This document shows positions 19,460 through 57,935 of a DNA stretch of 64,000 nt, piece by piece; the stretch's first letter is position 1; the number at the start of each line of letters is the position of its first letter. This DNA is from Minutocellus sp. GHC0000111. Its lineage: Eukaryota. Below the pieces are notes generated by a model that was not told where the DNA came from, ran no database searches, and saw nothing but the letters and a program-made list of their open reading frames with translations. The position numbers were made by a program, and so were the translations under genes. Where the stretch lies: assembly GCA_977018835.1 (NCBI GenBank), contig OZ361260.1:124001-188000 (forward strand), read 5' to 3'.

Positions 19460-22179
19460 CTATTCAATCTGCATTTGGGATCCTTTTCTTTCAATTGAAT
19501 GAAAAGTAATGAATAAATTGATAAAAACAAACATTGTCATCAACACTGCATCAAAGAAAAAGTTTCCATCTCTCCACGCCTGCAATGTTGACGCAATGGC
19601 GACCGTTGCAATAAAGTATGCGGATGCTCGTGAGAAAATAAGATTCAACAAGCACTCGACCAAACTATTTGCTCTTTCTCTGCGATCATCTCTCCTTGCT
19701 GCCAATTGAATAGCGTGAAACATGTCATCTTCGTCTGCAAGGTCTATCCTATCATCCTCATACTGAAGACGTAGGGCAATGCGATTTGCAATCATGTGGG
19801 ATATTGCCAGAGTCGTCAGCATCGGGTTGGCACCAGAGGCGGTGGGGAAGGTACTAGCATCGGCCACGTAGAGATCATCACACTCCCAGAGCTCCCCGTC
19901 TTCATCAGCAGCAGATGTGGACGGAGAGGAGCCAAGCCTGCAAGTTCCCATTTGGTGCGCAGAAAATATACTCATCGTGTACTTCGGCATTGATCTAGAC
20001 GTGATGGAATGATTGTACTTCTGGATCGCGGTTTCCCTATCTTCTGACTTCAAGGCCTCCAAATTTAATCCTTCATCATCATTGTGACAAGAACGTAAAT
20101 AGCTTGCCCCAGCTGCTGCGAGAATTGTCATGGCACCACAAAGACTCTGCAGCATGGAGCGTTTGTCTCTATCTTCCAAAACATACGAAATCTTGGGTCT
20201 GCCATCTTTGTCGGGGCGTACTGATCCTTCCGTGTGATCTCGCTGCAAAACGATCACTGTGACAGCATTTTTGGCAACCGCGAGGGTTTCCTTGAACAAA
20301 GACGGAGTGGTCCATGAAAGCCCTGCTCCCATGAGACGGTGTGGCTCGATGGGCACTCCAATCGGGCACCATAACCGTCCTTGTCTGGACCCGGTGTAAA
20401 CTGATTGCATACGGCAGTCATGGGGGCCCCTAACCACCCCAGCACGGACCCATCTAAATGAGCAGGCCTGGTTGGAATGTTTGAATTATCCTTGCGAGTA
20501 AAGGAACGAGATATCATGGACATGACACCGCCATCGTTCGTACCGCCGCTGCCATTCTTTTTTTCATCATCCCGAGGGGACATAAGGCCAATAGCGCAGG
20601 TAACTGGGTGAAGATGTAAATGTCTTCCAATATGACGATTCTTCAAACCACTCTTCAATAGTAAGCAAGGTGTATTCAGCGACCCAGCGGAGCAGATTAC
20701 ACATTTGTTCGCGTTGATCCGAATTGTCCGGCCTCCGACCCGAGCCACAACACCAGTCGCTTTGAGTCTACCACATTTCTTATCCTTTGATTTCAAGATT
20801 TTGGTCACAAAGCAGTCGGGGAGAATTTTAGCGCCAGCTTCGCAGGCATCGGCCAAATAGGTAACCAACCCTGACTGCTTGTTACCGTATCTATCTCCAA
20901 AGCATGTGAAACCAGCTGTCTGAGGTGCAGTGTCTCGATAATTCTGTCCCGTAACTTCATAATCGAATCCAGCTTTTTCACAGCCAGATATCAAGACCTC
21001 GTTCATCCCATTGTGTTGGATCATTGATGGGACAACTTTCCTCTTCGTATCGCCATTGACTCCAGTCCACGAAGGTGACTCTATGACACCAATTCTCTTC
21101 TTGACGGCAGCCATGCTGGCGTCGAATTCTGTCTGTACTCCTCCACCCACAGGCCGAAAGTTCTCGAGGCCATGAGCATCGGCCCACTCCCGTCGAACCT
21201 CATCTGGAGTCTCAATGCAACAACCCCAATTGATTGCGCTCCCGCCACCGAGGCCACTGCCAGCGAGTATCATTACATTGCCATCATCGGTAGTAAGAAG
21301 CGACGACTGCTCGTAAAGCTGATCGAACATATCCGACTCGAGATTGGTCATATCGTACGGCGACACGAAAGGACCTTTCTCCAGGATGATAACCTTGTAG
21401 CCAGCATTGGCAAGAGTCGCTGCTGAAACTCCACCGCCACATCCCGATCCAATAATGACAACATCGTATGTGATGAGCTCATCCGACATGTCATCAACAT
21501 CGAGAATGGCGCCATCCACCTCAAAATCGAACGGCATGCCTCTTCTGATGAGTTCCTCATCACGCTTGGGCGGAATTGTAGCATGAACTGGTCCGCTATA
21601 CGACATGTGTTCCCAATATGGATTCAGCTTCCATGGCTGCGGCGTTGGCGGAGCTCCGTTCTCATCTTCACTGGTCTTGCCATTGTTGGAGTCTACCACA
21701 TAAGAAAATGCCAATCCACAAAGCAACCGCTTCAACCCACAAAATGCCTCCCGATGTTTACCTAGCGGCGAATCTCGCAACCTCTGCAATGCCCAGACCC
21801 TATCGTCCAATGACCAGCTGGCAAAAGCCGTTGCACATGGAGAGCAAAATAGGGCTGCGCACCCAACGGGATTGGACATGGCGCGAAGGAGAAGGAGCAG
21901 GTCGGCCCGAACACCCTGCGGTATCTTTTCGAGAATTGCGGTGCAAACAGCCTCAATGTACGACGGAAAAGTTGCTAAATTGTGCGACCAAAAGCGCTGG
22001 TAGGCCTCGACGGCCTCGGCATTCGTGAGATCCGACGGACGTGCTGGACTGCCGGGAAGGGATGGTTCGGAAGGCGGATCAGTGCTTGGAACAAATGCGT
22101 CGGCAATCGCAACCAGAGTGGACAGCGACTGCGCCGGAAAGCGCTTCGTGTTGGGATACCGATCTGCTTCCGCCGTCAT
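19460..22179 (-). CDS. Long-chain fatty alcohol oxidase (GMC oxidoreductase, FAO type); frameshift near 20337
   Basis: DVVIIGSGCGGG FAD-binding motif, LAGSGLGGGSAINW, GRHLHLHP, SAHQMGTCRLG, DASTFPTASGANPM. The two ORFs join as ..SSHT(G)LMGAG with one added base. C-terminal hydrophobic helices. Confidence 0.9.
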
Positions 22180-47115: not shown

Positions 47116-50100
47116 ATGACGACTCAGGCCATCTTGCGGACGGCCCTCCGGCGAACAGCAGCATCGGCATCGTGTGGAACAGTCACCGGCGGATCCGCAT
47201 CTTCGTCGGCATTTGGCTTGCTGTCCCGAACCGCCCGTTCGGCTCTCCTGGCTTCTGGTGCTGGAGCTGACATAGCATCAGCCTGTTCGCGAGGATTGCC
47301 CCGCCGATTTAAATCGACGGCGGCCGCTGCCATTGACGATTACGATGATGACTCGACCGCCGCCGTCGCTCAGCCATTGCACTCCAACGAAACATTTTTG
47401 AACGGGACGGGATCGCTTTACGCCGAGCAGATGTACGATGCCTGGTTGGCCGACCCCAACAGCGTCCACGAGACGTGGCGCAATTACTTTGAGAACCTCG
47501 AGCAGGACGTCCCGTACGACGAGGCGGACTACAGCAGCCCTAGCGTCGTCCCCAGCACGGGCGCCGTGGCGTCGGCATCGGCGGCCTCCCTGGCCGGTAC
47601 CGGCGGCAAGTCCGATTCCCTCGGCGTTTCGCATCTCATCCGTGCCTATCAGGTTTCGGGACACATGGCCGCCAACCTCGATCCGTTGGGGTTGCACACC
47701 AAGGAATCCTTCCCCTTCCGCCCGTCCAACTCGCGCGACCCCTCCCATCTGCCCGAGGGCTATCCCGAGGAACTCACCCCGGCGTATCATGGCTTCGACG
47801 GGCCCGGTGATCTGGATCGCAAGCTCAACTTCCGCGGCACGTCCAGCGGCGGCAACAAGGGCTTCCTCGAGGAGCTGGCCGGCATGCCCGGCAAGGTCAC
47901 CCTCCGCTCCATCGTCGACATGCTCCGGAAGACGTACTGCGGCACCCTCGCCGTGGAGTACATGCACATCGGTGATCAGAACAAGTGCAACTGGATCCGA
48001 GAGCGCGTCGAGCAGCCCCGGTGGCTCTCGTACGACAAGGAGAAGAAGCTGCACATCTTCGAGCGTCTGTGCTTTGCCGACACCTTCGAGAACTTCCTCT
48101 CCAACAAGTTCAACACCACCAAGCGGTTCGGTCTGGACGGTGGCGAGGCCATCATTCCCGCCCTCAAGGATGGCATCGACCGTGCGTCCGAGCTGGGCGC
48201 GCACAGTTTCATCATTGGCATGCCCCACCGTGGCCGTCTCAACGTCCTGGCCAACGTGATGCGCAAGCCCATGCCCCTCATCTTCTCCGAGTTCCAGGGC
48301 ACGCACTACGACATCGATGCCCACACCAAGGCCGAGGGTGGAAAGTGGGGCATCAGCGGTGACGTCAAGTACCACTTGGGTTCCAGCATGGACCGTACCT
48401 ACCCCGACGGACGGCAGATCCATCTCAGTTTGGTCGCCAACCCCTCCCACTTGGAGTGCGTCGACCCCGTCGTTGCCGGCAAGACCCGTTTCAAGCAGTA
48501 CTACTGCGGTGATCGCGACGTCGACAAGCAGAACTGCGTCCCCATCCTCCTGCACGGCGATGCCGCCTTCGCCGGTCAGGGCGTGGTGTATGAGACCATG
48601 CAGCTCGCCGGAGTGCCCGACTTCAACGTCGGCGGTACCATTCACGTCATTGTGAACAATCAGATTGGCTTCACCACGAACCCCATCCACTCCCGATCGA
48701 CCCCGTACTGCTCTGACCTTGGTAAGGCCTTCGGTGCTCCCATCTTCCACTGTAACGGTGATGACCCGCTCTCTGTATCGACCGCCCTTGAAACGGCTGT
48801 TGAGTACCGTCACGAGTGGGGAACCGATGTCATCATCGATATGATCTGCTACCGCCGTAACGGCCACAACGAGCTCGATCAGCCCCTCTTCACCCAACCC
48901 AAGCTGTACAAGAAGATACAGAAGCACCCCACCACCCTGGACATTTACGAGAAGCGTCTCATCGAGGATGGCACCGCCACCCCCGAAGAGCTGCAAGAGA
49001 TCCGTGACTTTACTCTCAAGAACTATGAGTTCGAGTTTGAGCAGAGTAAGTCGTACGAGGCCAAGCCGGAGGATTGGCTCAGTTCCCGATGGACCGGCTT
49101 CAAGAGTCCCTCGCAGATGAGCCGCATCCGTCCAACTGGAGTTGATACTGAGACACTGAGGATGATCGGAATGAAGGCTGGAACTGTTCCGGAGGGATTC
49201 AAGCTGCATCGCCAGATGCAGAAGATCTTCAAGGCTCGGAAGGAGATGGCCGAAGAAGGCACTGGTATCGACTGGGGTACAGCCGAAGCTATGGCCTTTG
49301 GTTCTCTCCTAATTGAAGGTAACCACGTACGCATTACTGGTCAGGATGTGCAGCGTGGTACGTTCAGTCATCGCCATGCGGTTGTGAAGGATCAGGATAC
49401 TGAGGAGGAGTACACCCCGCTCAACTCGTTGGCCCAGAACCTGGACATGTCTGCCCCGAAGGAGGAGTTGGTTCGTCCCGATACGCAGGCTGGATTCATT
49501 GCTCGTAACTCAATCCTTTCTGAGTTTGCTGTCCTTGGTTTTGAGCATGGATACAGTTTGGAGAACCCCAACTGCCTTGTCCTTTGGGAGGCTCAATTCG
49601 GTGACTTTGTCAATGGTGCTCAGATCATGATTGATCAGTTTATCGTGGCGGGAGAGGACAAGTGGCTTCGTCAAAGTGGTCTTGTTATGCTCTTGCCTCA
49701 CGGATTCGATGGTCAGGGAGCCGAGCACTCTTCGTGCCGCGTGGAGCGCTTCTTGCAGCAGGTGGACGAAGATCCTCATCACATTCCTAACCTTGCACGG
49801 GATGAGCGTATGCAGGTCCAGCAGTGCAATATGCAAATTGTCAACTGCACCACCCCCGCCAACTACTTCCACTGCCTCCGAAGGCAAATACACCGTGATT
49901 TCCGCAAGCCTTTGGTCGTTGTTTCGCCCAAGAATCTCCTCCGTCACAAGCGATGCGTTTCGTCTCTCGATGATATGGGCCCTGGCAAAATGTTCCAGCG
50001 CGTTATCAATGAGACCGATAGGGACATCTGGGACAACCCGGAGCAGGTCAAGACCCTCGTCTTCTGCTCTGGACAGATTTACTACGAGCTGCTCGCCGAG

Positions 50101-50444
50101 CGCGAGAAGCAGGGTCGGGTCGCACGGATGTGGCCCTTGTGAGGATTGAGCAGATTGCTCCCTTCCCATTCGATCGAATTGCCAGCAATGTCAAGTGGTA
50201 TCCCAATGCTGAGGTCATCTTTGCTCAGCAAGAACCGAAGAACATGGGCGCTTACAGTTACTGCCTGCCTCGCATCATGACGGCGACTCGTGAGATTAAT
50301 GGCGACGAGAAAAGGCCGAGATATGTCGGCCGAGCCGTCAGCGCCGCCCCGGCGACTGGTATGGGCAAGATCCACCAGATGGAGTTCCAGAACATCCTCG
50401 ACGGCGTGTTCGGTAAGCCAAAATCTCTCGGAGTTGACAGTTAG
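47116..50444 (+). CDS. OGDH: 2-oxoglutarate dehydrogenase E1 component, mitochondrial; 5-bp duplication (GGGTC at 50112-50121) splits the ORF
   Basis: KRFGLDGGE, GMPHRGRLN, GDVKYHLG, HGDAAFAGQG, LWEAQFGDF, QQEPKNMG; mitochondrial-type presequence. Deleting one GGGTC yields KQGRTDVALVRIEQ. Confidence 0.97.
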
Positions 50445-50701: not shown

Positions 50702-50755
50702 AAAGATGCGTCAGAAACCGAGCTAAAAGAGACTCGGTATCGTCATTCCACCCCT
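50702..50755 (-). promoter_or_regulatory. Candidate SECIS element (atypical apical loop) in the 3' UTR of the UxxU gene
   Basis: AUGAC-GAUACCGAGU-loop CUCUUUUA-GCUCGGUUUC-UGAC: AUGA/GA quartet, 10-position helix II with 9 pairs, and a flanking AGGGGUG/CAUCUUU helix. Canonical apical AA is absent. Confidence 0.5.
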
Positions 50756-50820: not shown

Positions 50821-51510
50821 CTAGAGTATAATGCAGTGGCAGCAATTTCTGCAAGCCTGCCCACAGGTAGCTGTCTTGGGCAGTGTTTCTCCGTCGACCA
50901 CATCAAAGGTCTTGCCCTCCCGTTTCATCCTCACACATTGCTCGACCACATTCCAACATGCATCAGGGTTGGGCCTGCCTAGTGATCCTTGGAGATTGGC
51001 GGCTGTCGGGATGCATGCCCAACCCAGTGCAGGCCGATCGCCGACAAATATCAGCACGGCTGGTTGAACGGCTCCGTGTGGATAATTCTTCACGGTCAGT
51101 TCCGGGTCGAGCTCCATCATGCGCGAACAGTCGGTGATGTGAAGGTTAGGGAGGTGGGTGTCTTTGATGTACTGCACGAGTTTGTTCTCATGGTCGCCAA
51201 TGACCGCTGCGTAATTGGACAGATTCCAATTTCGCATGGCGGCACTGGAGGCGTCTTGCCGTTCGCTGGACAGTGCATAAAGTCTGATCGTGCAATTCTT
51301 GCTAGAAACATTGGCGGACGAAACGATGTGATCAAAGGCTGCCAAATAGTCTGGTCAGATGATTCACCAGATTCCTCTGTAAAATATAAAGCCAGTGATT
51401 TCATTCTCTTGCAATTGCTTATCAAACCATGTCTTGATGTTCCCATCGTCACCACCGCCTCGAAGAATTGACAATGCAATTTTCTCAGATTGGTTTACCA
51501 GAAGTTCCAT
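50821..51510 (-). CDS. Peroxiredoxin-like (AhpC/TSA, thioredoxin-fold) candidate selenoprotein with UxxU motif and C-terminal CaaX
   Basis: Continuous frame from ATG 51510: MELL..GFIFYRGIW-TGA-ATC-ATC-TGA-PDYLAAF..LYALSSE..IGD..YPHGAVQPAVLIF..NLQGSLGRP..CIIL-TAG. The TGAs at 51366-51364 and 51357-51355 sit at both Cys positions of FYRGxWCxxC. Confidence 0.8.
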
Positions 51511-52693
51511 TACCTGGTCACCAGCACCACCTGCAGCTGCAGCTGAAGCAGTAGCGGCGGCGGCATCGTGCACTTTCTTGGACTTGGGGGTAAACTGTCA
51601 GTTGGCGCACTTTGGAGCAGTCTCGGTCGTGGTCGCTGGCGGCGGCAAGGGGTTCTCATTGTCATTGTTTTCGCTACCGACACGTCACTCCGGGAAGAGA
51701 ACGTGCCATGAGACAATGACGGAGACCCACTGCCACCACCTACAGGCGTCATCATCCACCACCGCTGGCGTTAAGGACGCAGTACTTCTGTCCTAGACTG
51801 GTACTGTTGTTACTATTGGTATTGCAACAATCCTGACGAGACGTAGAATGGCACGAATGCGTCCTCGCAGTTTCTCCGAGGTCGGTTTTTTTGGCTGCCG
51901 AGCTTTCGTCTGGATGAGAAGAAGATGCGGAGATGGCTCCGACGGCACTTTTGATGAGTTTGTGAGATAGGCTGCAGATGCCGACGACGGCGTCGATTAT
52001 CAATCAGCACATGGCAGGGAGTTGCTGGTGGTATTGCTTGGCTCGAGGCTCTTTGTTGTTCGGTGAAATTGTGAGCACGCCACACAGAGCGCGCGGGAGT
52101 TGGTTCATGGTTGGTCCCGCGGTTCTGGCTCGTGAGAAAATCGACACATACGAGTCGTACATGATGTGTCGAACAACGGTCGTATCCGGCCCACTGTTAT
52201 GTTTGCTCCCCTGTCGCAAACCAAGGAACTGAAAAGAGAGCAGATATCTATACTCTAATAAAAATCCCTTCTGGAAGAGAGCGCATTGGTGATTGTTTTT
52301 TGGGGTCTTTCGGTTTTTCTCCGGCGGTGACCACTCATCAAGCACGAACTACGATTAGCACATCGTGCAAGAAAGGAGATCGTATTGGGAGGAATTGAAT
52401 TGGTTACCTGTCAGGATACGGGACTTGGTTGCATTGCATTCAAGAACATTCCTGAGGTGATTGGCTGTTCTATCTGAGCGTTGGGGGGCGATTGCATTGT
52501 TGTCTTTTGACCCAAGAAACCGAACGATTCAGATCCGACTAAGCTTCGCATTCGGCGAGAAAAGCAAGCAAGCAAGAAAAGCCGGCTGGATTGGTTTGAT
52601 TGATTCAATCCGACCATTTATTTGACAAAACACAACTCAGTAATCCAATTCAAGCACAAACAAAACGAAACGAATACAAGAAGAATCAAGACC

Positions 52694-55472: not shown

Positions 55473-55960
55473 TTAGATATAAATGTTCTCAGCACCAAAC
55501 TCCCTCTCGGCTGCTCTTCTTGCGCAGTGGAACATCAATGCCTCTGTATCGTGCTTTTCGACAACTTCCTCTTCCTGTCCATCTTCTCTTTCGACCTTGA
55601 TGGTCGGTGCTTCGTCAAATTTGTCCGCGCGGTCGTTCATTTCCATTTCGATTTCTTCCGTGGGAACGTTGATGCGACTTAAATCGCCGCCGACACTGCT
55701 CATTGCACGAACTTGATACTGACATGCGCGCGTCAGAAACCACATGGTTGAGAATGCTTCTTCAAGGCGTGAACCTACTACCAATGGACCGTGGTCTTCC
55801 AACATCATGACCTTATTTGTTGGTCCCAAGCTCTCCAAAAAGCGCGGTTGCTCATCAAGTGAATTGACGCTTCCTTCGTATGGATGATAAGCGATCCCTT
55901 TGGCCAGTGCAAACGTTGCTTCCTGTGACGGTGGTAAGAGCCCTGTTGATATCCCCTCTA
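55473..55960 (-). pseudogene. Class II aldolase/adducin-family C-terminal half; 5' part not found
   Basis: GLLPPSQEA..IAYHPYEG..LGPTNKVMMLEDHGPLVVG..LEEAF..LTRACQYQ. No N-terminal half or ATG seen directly upstream. Confidence 0.65.
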
Positions 55961-57935
55961 GCGGAGGGCAGACCAATCAATCCCTAGCACTCGAGCATCG
56001 ACCTAAATATGACCGTTGGGATCGATGACGTGCTAAGTTGGAGCCATGAGCCACAGTCGCTCATATTTAATCTGTTACGTAGCTGATTGATATCCACCAA
56101 TCAGCTGTACCTTAGCACGAGTACCTGGTCGAGTATAGGCCACATCAATACAGCTACGTGCAGACTTCCGTCCCGCACCTCGATCGGCATTCATGGCTGG
56201 CGCAAATAAAAATTGATGGTCGGTCGGCCGTCTGGTCACGACTGAAGATTTCCAGCTAGCTCCTGTGATTAATCACCCCAGGAAATTTCTATTGCGTACC
56301 AATGTGGCATAACATGGTTCAAGATGCAATCGCTGGGCGTTCGGTTGAAGTTGTGATGCGCAGATGCACAGATGCACAGATGCGCAGATGCGATCGATGC
56401 ATGGCGGATTGTCTGTTGTCGTCATCCGTCCGTTGTCCGACCAGCACAGCTCACTCAACTCCACCAATCGCATTGGCATTTGAGTTTGCGTCACTGCTGA
56501 TGTAATCTCAAATAAAAGCGCTCCGCAACATCACAATGCTACCCAATGACGAAAACTCCCAAACCCCCTGCTGAACGAGCCCATCGTGCTCCACCTCCCA
56601 AACGCTTGATGATGTCAGTCAAGCAAGAAGTTTCGGACGAACGAAACATGAAGCGCACGGACGGAGCAGGCATCGAGTGTGGCATGGTCGCAAGATGTTT
56701 CATTGCTCTACTGCCCCCACCGATGACAGGATTGGCGTTAATGGCACGTATTTTGGCGTTAACAGGCATTAGATTAATGATGACTTGATAGCATTTCATC
56801 ATGCAGTCGAACAAACAAAAAACAAGAAGAAGAATGCAGTCAGTGACTGACTTGCCCAAAAAAATTCATTGCTTAAGCACTGTATATTTTCTAACCCTAA
56901 CCCAAACCCCGACAACGATGCTAGATCTAGATCTACATGCTTTTATGTAGACCAGGCGCATGTTTACATGCATCAACAGGCTCAAGACTGCCGACCGGTA
57001 ACTTTGGGCCGGCACCGGTGCGTTGGCGTCACGCACAACCTGTCTGTCATCCGGTCCTGAGCCCCATCATTTTCTCCCGGATTATAAAAGGCTTTCCCCC
57101 CTACACTTATATTTTCTTGTGCTTGTTTCGCACTTGTTTTTGGCGTTCAAACCTCACTTTGACTCGTCGCCATCGCCCACTCTTTCACTGCATGCCTGAC
57201 AGCCAGAGCCATGATTGTTGAACATGATCTTGCCATCGTCGTCGTCGCCAGTGATGTGCACGGCCGCCTCTCATCGCGGCAGCGGCCGCCGCTGATCGTT
57301 CTTCTGGCTCTTCTCGCTCCCGTCGAGCGCATGCTGCCGCCTCGGACACTCCATCGTGGCGCTGGTTCGCTTTTGAGCTCAACGACTCAACCAACTCTCC
57401 CTCCTTCACTAGGCCAGCATTCGACCTCCACTTTCACCACCGTTCCATGCCGGGGAGACGATGGCCGCCGTCGTCGCCATAACCGCCACCATGTCACCAC
57501 CACCGCCATGACTCGGTCGGTCCGGTCCTTCGAGTGGTTGTCCTCTCCTCCCTTCCACAGTTGGACAGTTTGGCCATGCGGTTCCACGCTGGCGTTCAAC
57601 GCGCACGTACGTTCCGTTGATTGTGGATGTTCATGGTAAGTTTTGCTTACGCAATAATTACGAAACATCGATGAAACGGAAAAACTGCTGATCGATTGGA
57701 AGAATGATGGAAAGACGGCACGATGTGGAGCATCTTTTCGCATTGCTTGCATCTGCATCTGGCGCATTCATTTCACTCATCTTGCTCCCTCCACTGTGTT
57801 CCGACACACTCTTTTGTCCACATAATATCAACAGACCAGTCATCCACCAGACCATTGATTCGTCCGAGGGCATCTTGTATCTTTGCTTCCTTTTCAACAT
57901 GTAAGTTTTGCGGCTTGTTCTTTTTTTTTTTTCAG

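Follow-up and report, generated by a model that had tools for sequence, protein, structure and literature searches.

A probable UxxU selenoprotein of the AhpC-like family with a CaaX-type ending and a conserved TGA-containing upstream ORF

Two TGA codons lie in frame on the minus strand of the 64,000-nt stretch analysed here (the window), in the sequence TGG-TGA-ATC-ATC-TGA-CCA-GAC-TAT, and fall on the CxxC positions of a protein with an AhpC/TSA fold. This locus raises the question of whether these codons are read as selenocysteine (Sec, U), what kind of protein would result, and how its production might be controlled. The preliminary description had joined two separately listed ORFs, one of them with its own entry in the ORF-finder list (50821..51345), into a single frame across this sequence, and both the sequence and its translation with TGA=U agree with this: the frame runs uninterrupted from 51573 to the TAG at 50823-50821 (minus strand). 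The length of 229 aa proposed at the same time is obtained from ATG 51510, but it is insecure, because the start is uncertain and coding-type conservation reaches 84 nt upstream of this ATG. The features of the frame are as follows.

50821..51510, minus strand: ORF of the AhpC/TSA fold in its minimal form (229 aa from ATG 51510, with U49 and U52)
51366-51364, minus strand: first TGA (U49), at the first Cys of the family CxxC, as read from the codon, its retention in the orthologue L001 and the alignment
51357-51355, minus strand: second TGA (U52), aligned with the peroxidatic Cys of peroxiredoxins (Prx), as read from L001, the WIMW of the database protein P0115 and a profile alignment

Homologues and conservation of the two TGA codons

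A phmmer search against 1.84 billion representative proteins gave 99 matches, 59 of which reached the motif region (absent from the other 40), with 41 CxxC, 10 CxxD, 4 WxxC, 1 ending at W and 3 other motif types. The claim that both TGAs replace redox cysteines is borne out by this search, since Cys occupies both positions in 41 of the 59 motif-bearing homologues and the second position in the four WxxC proteins. The in-frame TGAs are thus aligned with the Cys of homologues, as in eukaryotic selenoproteins, and the redox box carries two prospective Sec residues, as in selenoprotein L (SelL), here in the form of TGA codons. In alignment A1 (65 rows, including the query with C at the TGA sites), C was found at column 49 in 39 rows and at column 52 in 37.

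The one true orthologue from a metagenome scan, L001, which is also the only one obtained as full DNA, reads TGG-TGA-ATC-ATG-TGA-CCC. The spacing TGA-N6-TGA is therefore conserved in a relative at dS ~1.0, with conserved coding sequence on both sides of the codons: the two proteins are 77% identical in amino acids, with a dS of 1.03, a dN of 0.117 and a ratio of 0.11 over 221 codons, and the domain is intact, as first proposed, and under purifying selection. A weak match of 24 residues (L002) was set aside, and viral contigs scanned for the motif contained none. Indirect evidence comes from P0115, known as protein sequence alone, which reads W-W-I-M-W-P-D-Y, consistent with both TGAs having been taken as Trp; the W at the TGA sites of database proteins most likely reflects, as we infer, gene calling with a table in which TGA=W. 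All 11 homologues found with a word index lacked the motif region and started downstream of it (one of them near-identical to the ORF of the window), and four short relatives, which are N-terminal fragments, stopped at the W just before the first TGA. Such truncation is the expected outcome of gene calling with table 11 on a gene containing TGA.

The RNA-library contigs of all four near-identical runs span the motif, and neither TGA has a listed change; for four more distant runs, the 40 of 294 rows listed include an Ile-to-Met change at 51358 and none in a TGA. One of the near-identical runs, X12 (a single contig with a depth of 6.9), differs by a synonymous substitution at 51361 and by a 1-nt deletion at 51381, which shifts the frame 15 nt ahead of the first TGA. 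Transcription of the gene, as well as the presence of an unspliced linker in its leader, is only hinted at by these contigs, which may include DNA.

A pseudogene or an assembly error, with the stops arising by decay or miscalling, would fit the indel-type errors seen elsewhere in the window, such as a 5-nt duplication in the 2-oxoglutarate dehydrogenase (OGDH) gene, and the frameshift near the motif in one RNA-library contig. Against it, L001 has the same two TGAs at dS ~1.0 and a dN/dS of 0.11, P0115 has W at both sites, the four near-identical runs are unchanged at the TGAs, and the chance of two random stops falling on exactly these two of 229 codons is, by arithmetic, ~1 in 26,000. Decay and indel errors are, as the preliminary description held, a poor explanation, and we regard this alternative as extremely improbable. 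A variant genetic code, with TGA meaning Trp or Cys in every gene of the host, would account for the W at the TGA sites of P0115 and four other database proteins. The 22 ORFs of the window, which are free of internal TGA by construction, comprise 11,768 codons with 133 TGG and 224 TGY (357 Trp/Cys), and 10 of the 22 end in TGA, which makes such a code just as hard to credit. No tRNA was found by ARAGORN within the 64-kb window.

Several other features of the window were recorded. On the plus strand, GGTCG is duplicated at 50110-50119 in the 2-oxoglutarate dehydrogenase gene, shifting its frame (ORFs 47116-50142 and 50130-50444), most likely through an assembly error. A GMC oxidoreductase at 19460-22179 (minus strand) is present as two overlapping ORFs in different frames, probably due to an indel error or an intron, and a class II aldolase/adducin ORF at 55473-55976 (minus strand) matches only profile positions 107-183 of 183, its upstream part being missing or interrupted. 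The window also contains many long uninterrupted ORFs (among them a P-type ATPase of 1060 aa, a HECT ligase of 882 aa and OGDH of 1008 aa), which points to a eukaryotic genome with few introns.

The query alone gave nothing significant in sequence searches against Pfam, NCBIfam or the PDB, so its placement in a family relies on its homologues and on the fold. PF00578 (AhpC-TSA) was found in many of the homologues, and the best NCBIfam model among them was the SelL-related redox protein NF040769, with weak matches in 13 of the 65 rows; the query itself matched neither NF040769 nor PF13911 at the thresholds used. Among the relatives with a name, the nearest (36% identity) is a CxxC protein of Corethron, which belongs to the P0022 cluster. 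In a tree of 49 selected rows with a midpoint root, which does not give the direction of change, the window protein, P0115 and seven truncated proteins ending in CII[L/V] formed a supported clade (98/94), and this clade was nested among CxxC, CxxD and probable UxxC forms. The CxxD subfamily (P0048, P0059, P0062, P0077, P0102, P0014 and others) accounts for 10 of the 99 matches, several with CaaX ends, and most of its members fall into one well-supported clade. Four proteins known as protein sequence alone (P0020, P0035, P0084 and P0085) read W-W-x-x-C at the motif and are probably further UxxC selenoproteins with TGA called as Trp. In two others, also known as protein sequence alone (P0013 and P0025), an intron located at the first motif codon has apparently been read through, and a split TGA may be hidden there.

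AhpC-like selenoproteins are known in sponges (Aq./Oc.AphC.like; in the accessible portion of Jiang 2012, PMC3473315), and the family, with members in sponges, protists and bacteria, is described as UxxC in eukaryotes in the part of Mariotti 2013 (PMC3753652) that was available. The same holds for the algal AhpC_b, given as UxxC in the available text of PMC7539508, where the SelW of Ostreococcus is UxxU. Diatoms are rich in selenoproteins (PMC2375036). By-eye comparison with the Oscarella alignment, as far as that alignment was accessible, showed that the window protein shares with the sponge AphC.like proteins the motifs FYRGxW-U, D-P, YPHGxVQP, W and NLxGAxxRP; it also shares with eukaryotic AhpC-like selenoproteins the thioredoxin/AhpC fold and a 3' SECIS, here a SECIS-shaped hairpin. 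Unlike the UxxC forms described in these excerpts, it has a TGA at the second position as well. The UxxU motif had initially been thought undescribed in this family. However, prokaryotic PF00578 proteins ('Prx-like thiol:disulfide oxidoreductase') are listed as UxxC/UxxU in the accessible parts of PMC9312934 and PMC13188914, and UxxU Prx-like 2 sequences occur in the GOS data (PMC2398784). SelL is a Prx-like protein with two Sec (PMC2398784; PMC3473315), and a diselenide is named in the title of the SelL paper cited in PMC3473315. Given the prokaryotic PF00578 listing and the two Sec residues of SelW and SelL, the motif is a variant and not a first instance, and by itself it is less novel than was held. 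The prokaryotic PF00578 oxidoreductases share with the window protein the Pfam family (through its homologues) and the UxxU motif, whereas the gene described here belongs to a eukaryote and has a hairpin in its 3' UTR and a CaaX tail. SelL has two Sec in common with it, with what we take to be the same UxxU spacing, whereas the motif context is here FYRGIW and the query matches neither of the two models named above. Searches of the open-access literature brought up no eukaryotic UxxU AhpC-like protein. The codons and alignments taken together indicate that the gene is very probably a real UxxU selenoprotein, a variant within the known AhpC-like family, and probably a compact eukaryotic two-Sec example with a single-exon domain.

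A SECIS-shaped hairpin downstream of the stop codon

The selenoprotein reading gains from an element located 75 nt behind the stop codon and conserved in L001.

50703..50754, minus strand: SECIS-shaped hairpin with helix I, an AUGAC/UGAC core, helix II and an apical loop lacking AA

An 11-bp helix, containing a single bulge and a single U-U pair, is enclosed by the core strands (AUGAC at 50746-50742 and UGAC at 50713-50710), and a lower helix is present beneath them, so that the 3' UTR holds a SECIS core with helices I and II. The copies from the window and L001 both fold as helix I, core and helix II, and the hairpin is 89% identical between them, compared with 59% and 53% for the flanks. All 12 base pairs common to these two sequences hold, 2 of them through one-sided changes and 0 through compensatory ones. 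For the 3' strand of the core, the window and L001 have UGAC and the runs of four relatives have UGAU (50710), the core consensus being UGAN / KGAW in a kink-turn (available part of PMC3753652). Scanning both strands of the window (128 kb) for a SECIS core with helices returned this hairpin as the sole match (null mean 0.9), under thresholds chosen after the element had been seen and below which the L001 copy falls. Neither AA nor CC was found in the apical region, which reads UCUCUUUUAG in the window and GUCUUUGUUACUAGAC in L001; apical adenines are typical of SECIS elements (same source, likewise in part). No SECIS model of Rfam was matched at E up to 10, and the folding z-scores of the hairpin were weak (-0.8 to -1.6).

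In the scheme that we propose, the 3' hairpin would recruit the eukaryotic Sec machinery and both UGAs would be read as Sec. From codon and hairpin conservation, we consider it highly likely that the first UGA is read in this way, and the reading of both UGAs as Sec can be put forward with good confidence. A hairpin without AA would widen the definition of SECIS elements and explain why such genes are missed, since all 11 of the closest database representatives are cut at the TGAs.

Predicted fold, redox activity and C-terminal ending

AlphaFold2 run on the 65-row alignment gave a model with a pLDDT of 90.8, in which the motif lies between a strand (38-43) and a helix (52-69). Foldseek and VIA-align comparisons of this predicted model placed peroxiredoxins at the top (Z 13.2, rmsd 2.6, 141 aligned), with an identity of only ~5-16% to these structural matches. 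The AhpC/TSA fold with its FYRGxW-[UC]-x-x-[C] box is present, the second position being TGA and not Cys. In a profile alignment to 2cx3, U52 corresponds to the peroxidatic Cys, U49 to the Ser/Thr site and R45 to the Pro site, and the PxxxT/SxxC motif of peroxiredoxins is absent, RGIWUIIU being aligned with PAAFSPVC. Pro150 is found in 63 of the 65 rows and directly precedes the segment aligned to 2ywn 121-138. We take this site to be that of the catalytic Arg of Prx before the strand AVFVID, and that of the cis-Pro of thioredoxins. The Prx motif reported for selenoproteins is PxxxTxxU (accessible parts of PMC9312934 and PMC13188914).

The missing Prx signature and the near-invariant Pro150 favour a disulfide oxidoreductase, which the model and the alignment make more likely than a peroxidase. 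The label 'peroxiredoxin-like' used at the outset is accordingly retained for the AhpC/TSA fold and the top structural matches, but not for the chemistry, as the signature is absent and the protein is probably no peroxidase. If the UxxU selenoprotein acted as a peroxidase of the BCP/PrxQ type, U52 would be peroxidatic and U49 resolving, and selenium would make up for the missing triad. All the top structural matches are indeed peroxiredoxins, and U52 is aligned with the peroxidatic Cys of 2cx3. The occurrence of RGIWUIIU in place of PxxxT/SxxC, the near-invariant Pro at what we assume to be the Prx Arg site, the SelL-related model as best NCBIfam match among the homologues and the low identity to the peroxiredoxins argue against a peroxidase, which we therefore consider improbable. 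For the disulfide oxidoreductase, U49 would attack a substrate disulfide or oxidised thiol and U52 would resolve the intermediate, in a diselenide cycle as reported for SelL; by analogy, such cycling of U49/U52 on disulfides has a slightly better than even chance of being correct.

The other end of the protein carries a further motif, which, together with the TGA-containing upstream ORF described in the next section, had been overlooked in the preliminary description.

50824..50835, minus strand: CIIL, a CaaX-type box, following CC-H (protein end CCHCIIL)

This ending has the form C-aliphatic-aliphatic-X and is conserved: Cys at position -4 was found in 20 of the 29 closest proteins (P0002-P0030, including that of the window) and in 14 of 79 more distant ones. 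Prenylation is predicted from the CIIL ending and this conserved Cys. According to the sequence, it is reasonably likely that CIIL is prenylated and the nearby Cys residues are palmitoylated, modifications that would place the protein at the cytosolic face of a membrane. MIEN1/C17orf37, a protein with a thioredoxin-like fold and a redox Cys pair, has a CaaX box (CVIL) that is geranylgeranylated and is located at the inner membrane leaflet (PMC3527542). It shows that a CxxC protein of the thioredoxin fold can be prenylated, but it is SelW-like and lacks Sec, and it is only a functional analogue. The Oscarella AphC.like_a row, in the portion of the sponge alignment available, ends without a CaaX box, whereas the protein described here ends in CIIL, and searches of the open-access literature brought up no CaaX-containing or prenylated selenoprotein.

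The codons and their conservation, the sequence and shape of the hairpin, the predicted Prx/thioredoxin fold and the CaaX-type ending can be read directly, and they are consistent with what we consider the likely identity of this gene product: a UxxU AhpC-like selenoprotein decoded by means of the SECIS-shaped hairpin, which would act as a lipid-anchored disulfide oxidoreductase and not as a peroxidase.

The 5' leader, its upstream ORF and the start of the protein

The leader comprises the following features, upstream to downstream.

52060..52075, minus strand: conserved block CTCACAATTTCACCGA at the 5' edge of the similarity to relatives (weak)
51740..52012, minus strand: conserved upstream ORF, ATG-TGC-TGA and 83 further codons
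51750..51755, minus strand: ATG-ATG sharing bases with the TGA(s) that end the upstream ORF (AUGA overlap); candidate for the true start
51595..51743, minus strand: variable linker GTAGGT...CTGACAG, candidate phase-0 intron (149 nt; 69 nt in L001)
51511..51594, minus strand: in-frame N-terminal extension, FTPKSKK followed by an Ala-rich part (84 nt)

The 52060..52075 block is a candidate, though weak, transcription-start region: L001 begins at this block, loose ends were found at 52074/52075 in 3 runs, and the contigs of four RNA-library runs end at ~52052-52058, for which a graph break is equally possible. The upstream ORF begins with ATG-TGC-TGA at 52012 in both the window and L001, this being the first ATG after the similarity edge. 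Its codon-3 TGA lies at 52006-52004, and it ends at the TGA at 51754-51752, followed by TGA-CGC-CTG-TAG; readthrough of the codon-3 TGA would give 86-90 aa. The ORF looks coding at the sequence level: mismatches by codon position are 12/11/26 (p 0.003 at the nucleotide level), gaps sum to multiples of three, the frame is kept in all 6 of the pieces from other runs, and the dN/dS is 0.27. No further ATG occurs inside it in either copy, as in 77 of 2,550 windows of the same length. No database homologue of 49-158 aa was found for it, its TTG-started 83-aa form is absent from the protein collection, and it has no significant Pfam match. Its readthrough product would have a hydrophobic stretch at the extreme N-terminus (KD 1.8 and 1.7) and would end in G-G-U-(U)-R-L-stop, which fits proteins of the SelK/SelS type, where Sec is located near the C-terminus after Gly. 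An identity as SelK is not supported (no match to Pfam SelK for either copy at E up to 10). Antisense coding over the ORF was rejected, with several stops in all three antisense frames of both copies, as was a frameshift fusion to the domain, the frame relation differing between the window and L001.

Downstream of this ORF, the extension differs from that of L001 by 1/3/9 mismatches by codon position, and 2 of the 3 gap settings give gap lengths divisible by 3; codon periodicity is absent from the linker. The overlapped ATG is kept in L001 (ATG at 298), where it is in frame with the domain via C-T-N-TGA-Q-F-T-P-K, the linker carrying an in-frame C-x-N-TGA (TGA at 51600-51598). The unspliced linker is in frame with the domain in L001, X13, X14, X17 and X19 (about three lineages). 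In the strain of the window and, identically, in the four near-identical runs, the linker is shifted by one base and is out of frame when unspliced. The window has seven ATGs upstream of ATG 51510. In this strain, an out-of-frame ORF from ATG 51755 ends in a TAA overlapping ATG 51510 (TAATG), an overlap that is missing in L001. A search of shorter proteins for database entries carrying the N-terminal extension gave only fragments from the downstream ATG. The protein may thus start at ATG 51510 (229 aa) or, with splicing, at the upstream ATG (about 260 aa), and in relatives the start may be the upstream ATG with a third Sec.

These observations can be accommodated by an ordinary leader, in which 51743-51595 is a phase-0 intron joining ATG 51755/51752 to FTPKSKK (about 260 aa) and the linker TGA belongs to a splice signal. 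The upstream ORF would then have no connection with selenium and be either a small gene of its own or a peptide uORF. This explanation concerns the leader only and is compatible with UxxU. GTAGGT and CTGACAG are present in both the window and L001, and although the two linkers measure 149 and 69 nt, splicing at these sites creates an in-frame junction with the upstream ATG in each; the lack of codon periodicity in the linker points the same way, and, since the unspliced linker of the window is out of frame, this strain would obtain the conserved extension solely through splicing. Taken alone, an in-frame junction is nevertheless weak evidence, because 36 GT-AG pairs in the window restore the frame. 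CTRACAG occurs 9 times in the window versus 15 expected, and this lack of enrichment gives no guide to the intron consensus of the host. Against the intron, no joint spanning the linker was found in the contigs of five RNA-library runs (in which rare forms are dropped and DNA is possible), the linker, left unspliced, preserves the frame of the domain in the pieces from five relatives, no database fragment starting at the upstream ATG was found, and an intron leaves the conserved ATG-TGC-TGA of the upstream ORF unexplained. We give the ordinary leader somewhat less than an even chance.

The alternative is that the first ORF of the 5' leader adjusts output through its UGA, which we regard as possible, though rather unlikely. 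Ribosomes would meet the first AUG and then UGC-UGA; termination there would favour re-initiation at a downstream AUG, and Sec readthrough would instead send them through the 86-codon ORF. In eukaryotic metabolite-sensing uORFs, such as the tiny and small uORFs of plant AdoMetDC and the boron-sensing AUG-stop, a tiny first ORF likewise has a stop or readthrough that sets downstream initiation. Unlike in those systems, the switch would here depend on a UGA and on a SECIS located far away in the 3' UTR, with a conserved readthrough product of 86-90 aa. More tentatively still, a single 3' SECIS might serve two products and act as a selenium gauge, as a Sec-sensing uORF switch over a CaaX-anchored UxxU enzyme. 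Ribosomes inserting Sec at AUG-UGC-UGA would make a new, uncatalogued selenopeptide of 86-90 aa, and stopped ribosomes would start anew at the overlapped AUG and would have to read through as many as three further UGAs to make the lipid-anchored diselenide oxidoreductase. A TGA-containing upstream ORF is not described for eukaryotic AhpC-like selenoproteins in the accessible parts of the papers cited above, and searches of the open-access literature brought up no eukaryotic Sec-codon uORF.

What adds to the interest of this gene, beyond the motif itself, is the predicted CaaX anchor, the SECIS-shaped hairpin lacking AA and the upstream ORF with its conserved UGA. Few redox boxes hold two Sec, and little is known about the partners and purpose of those that do; a family with CxxC, probable UxxC and CxxD relatives would provide a natural series for testing the benefit of a diselenide. 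If the leader is a Sec-sensing uORF, a marine eukaryote could use it to match its selenoprotein output to scarce selenium.
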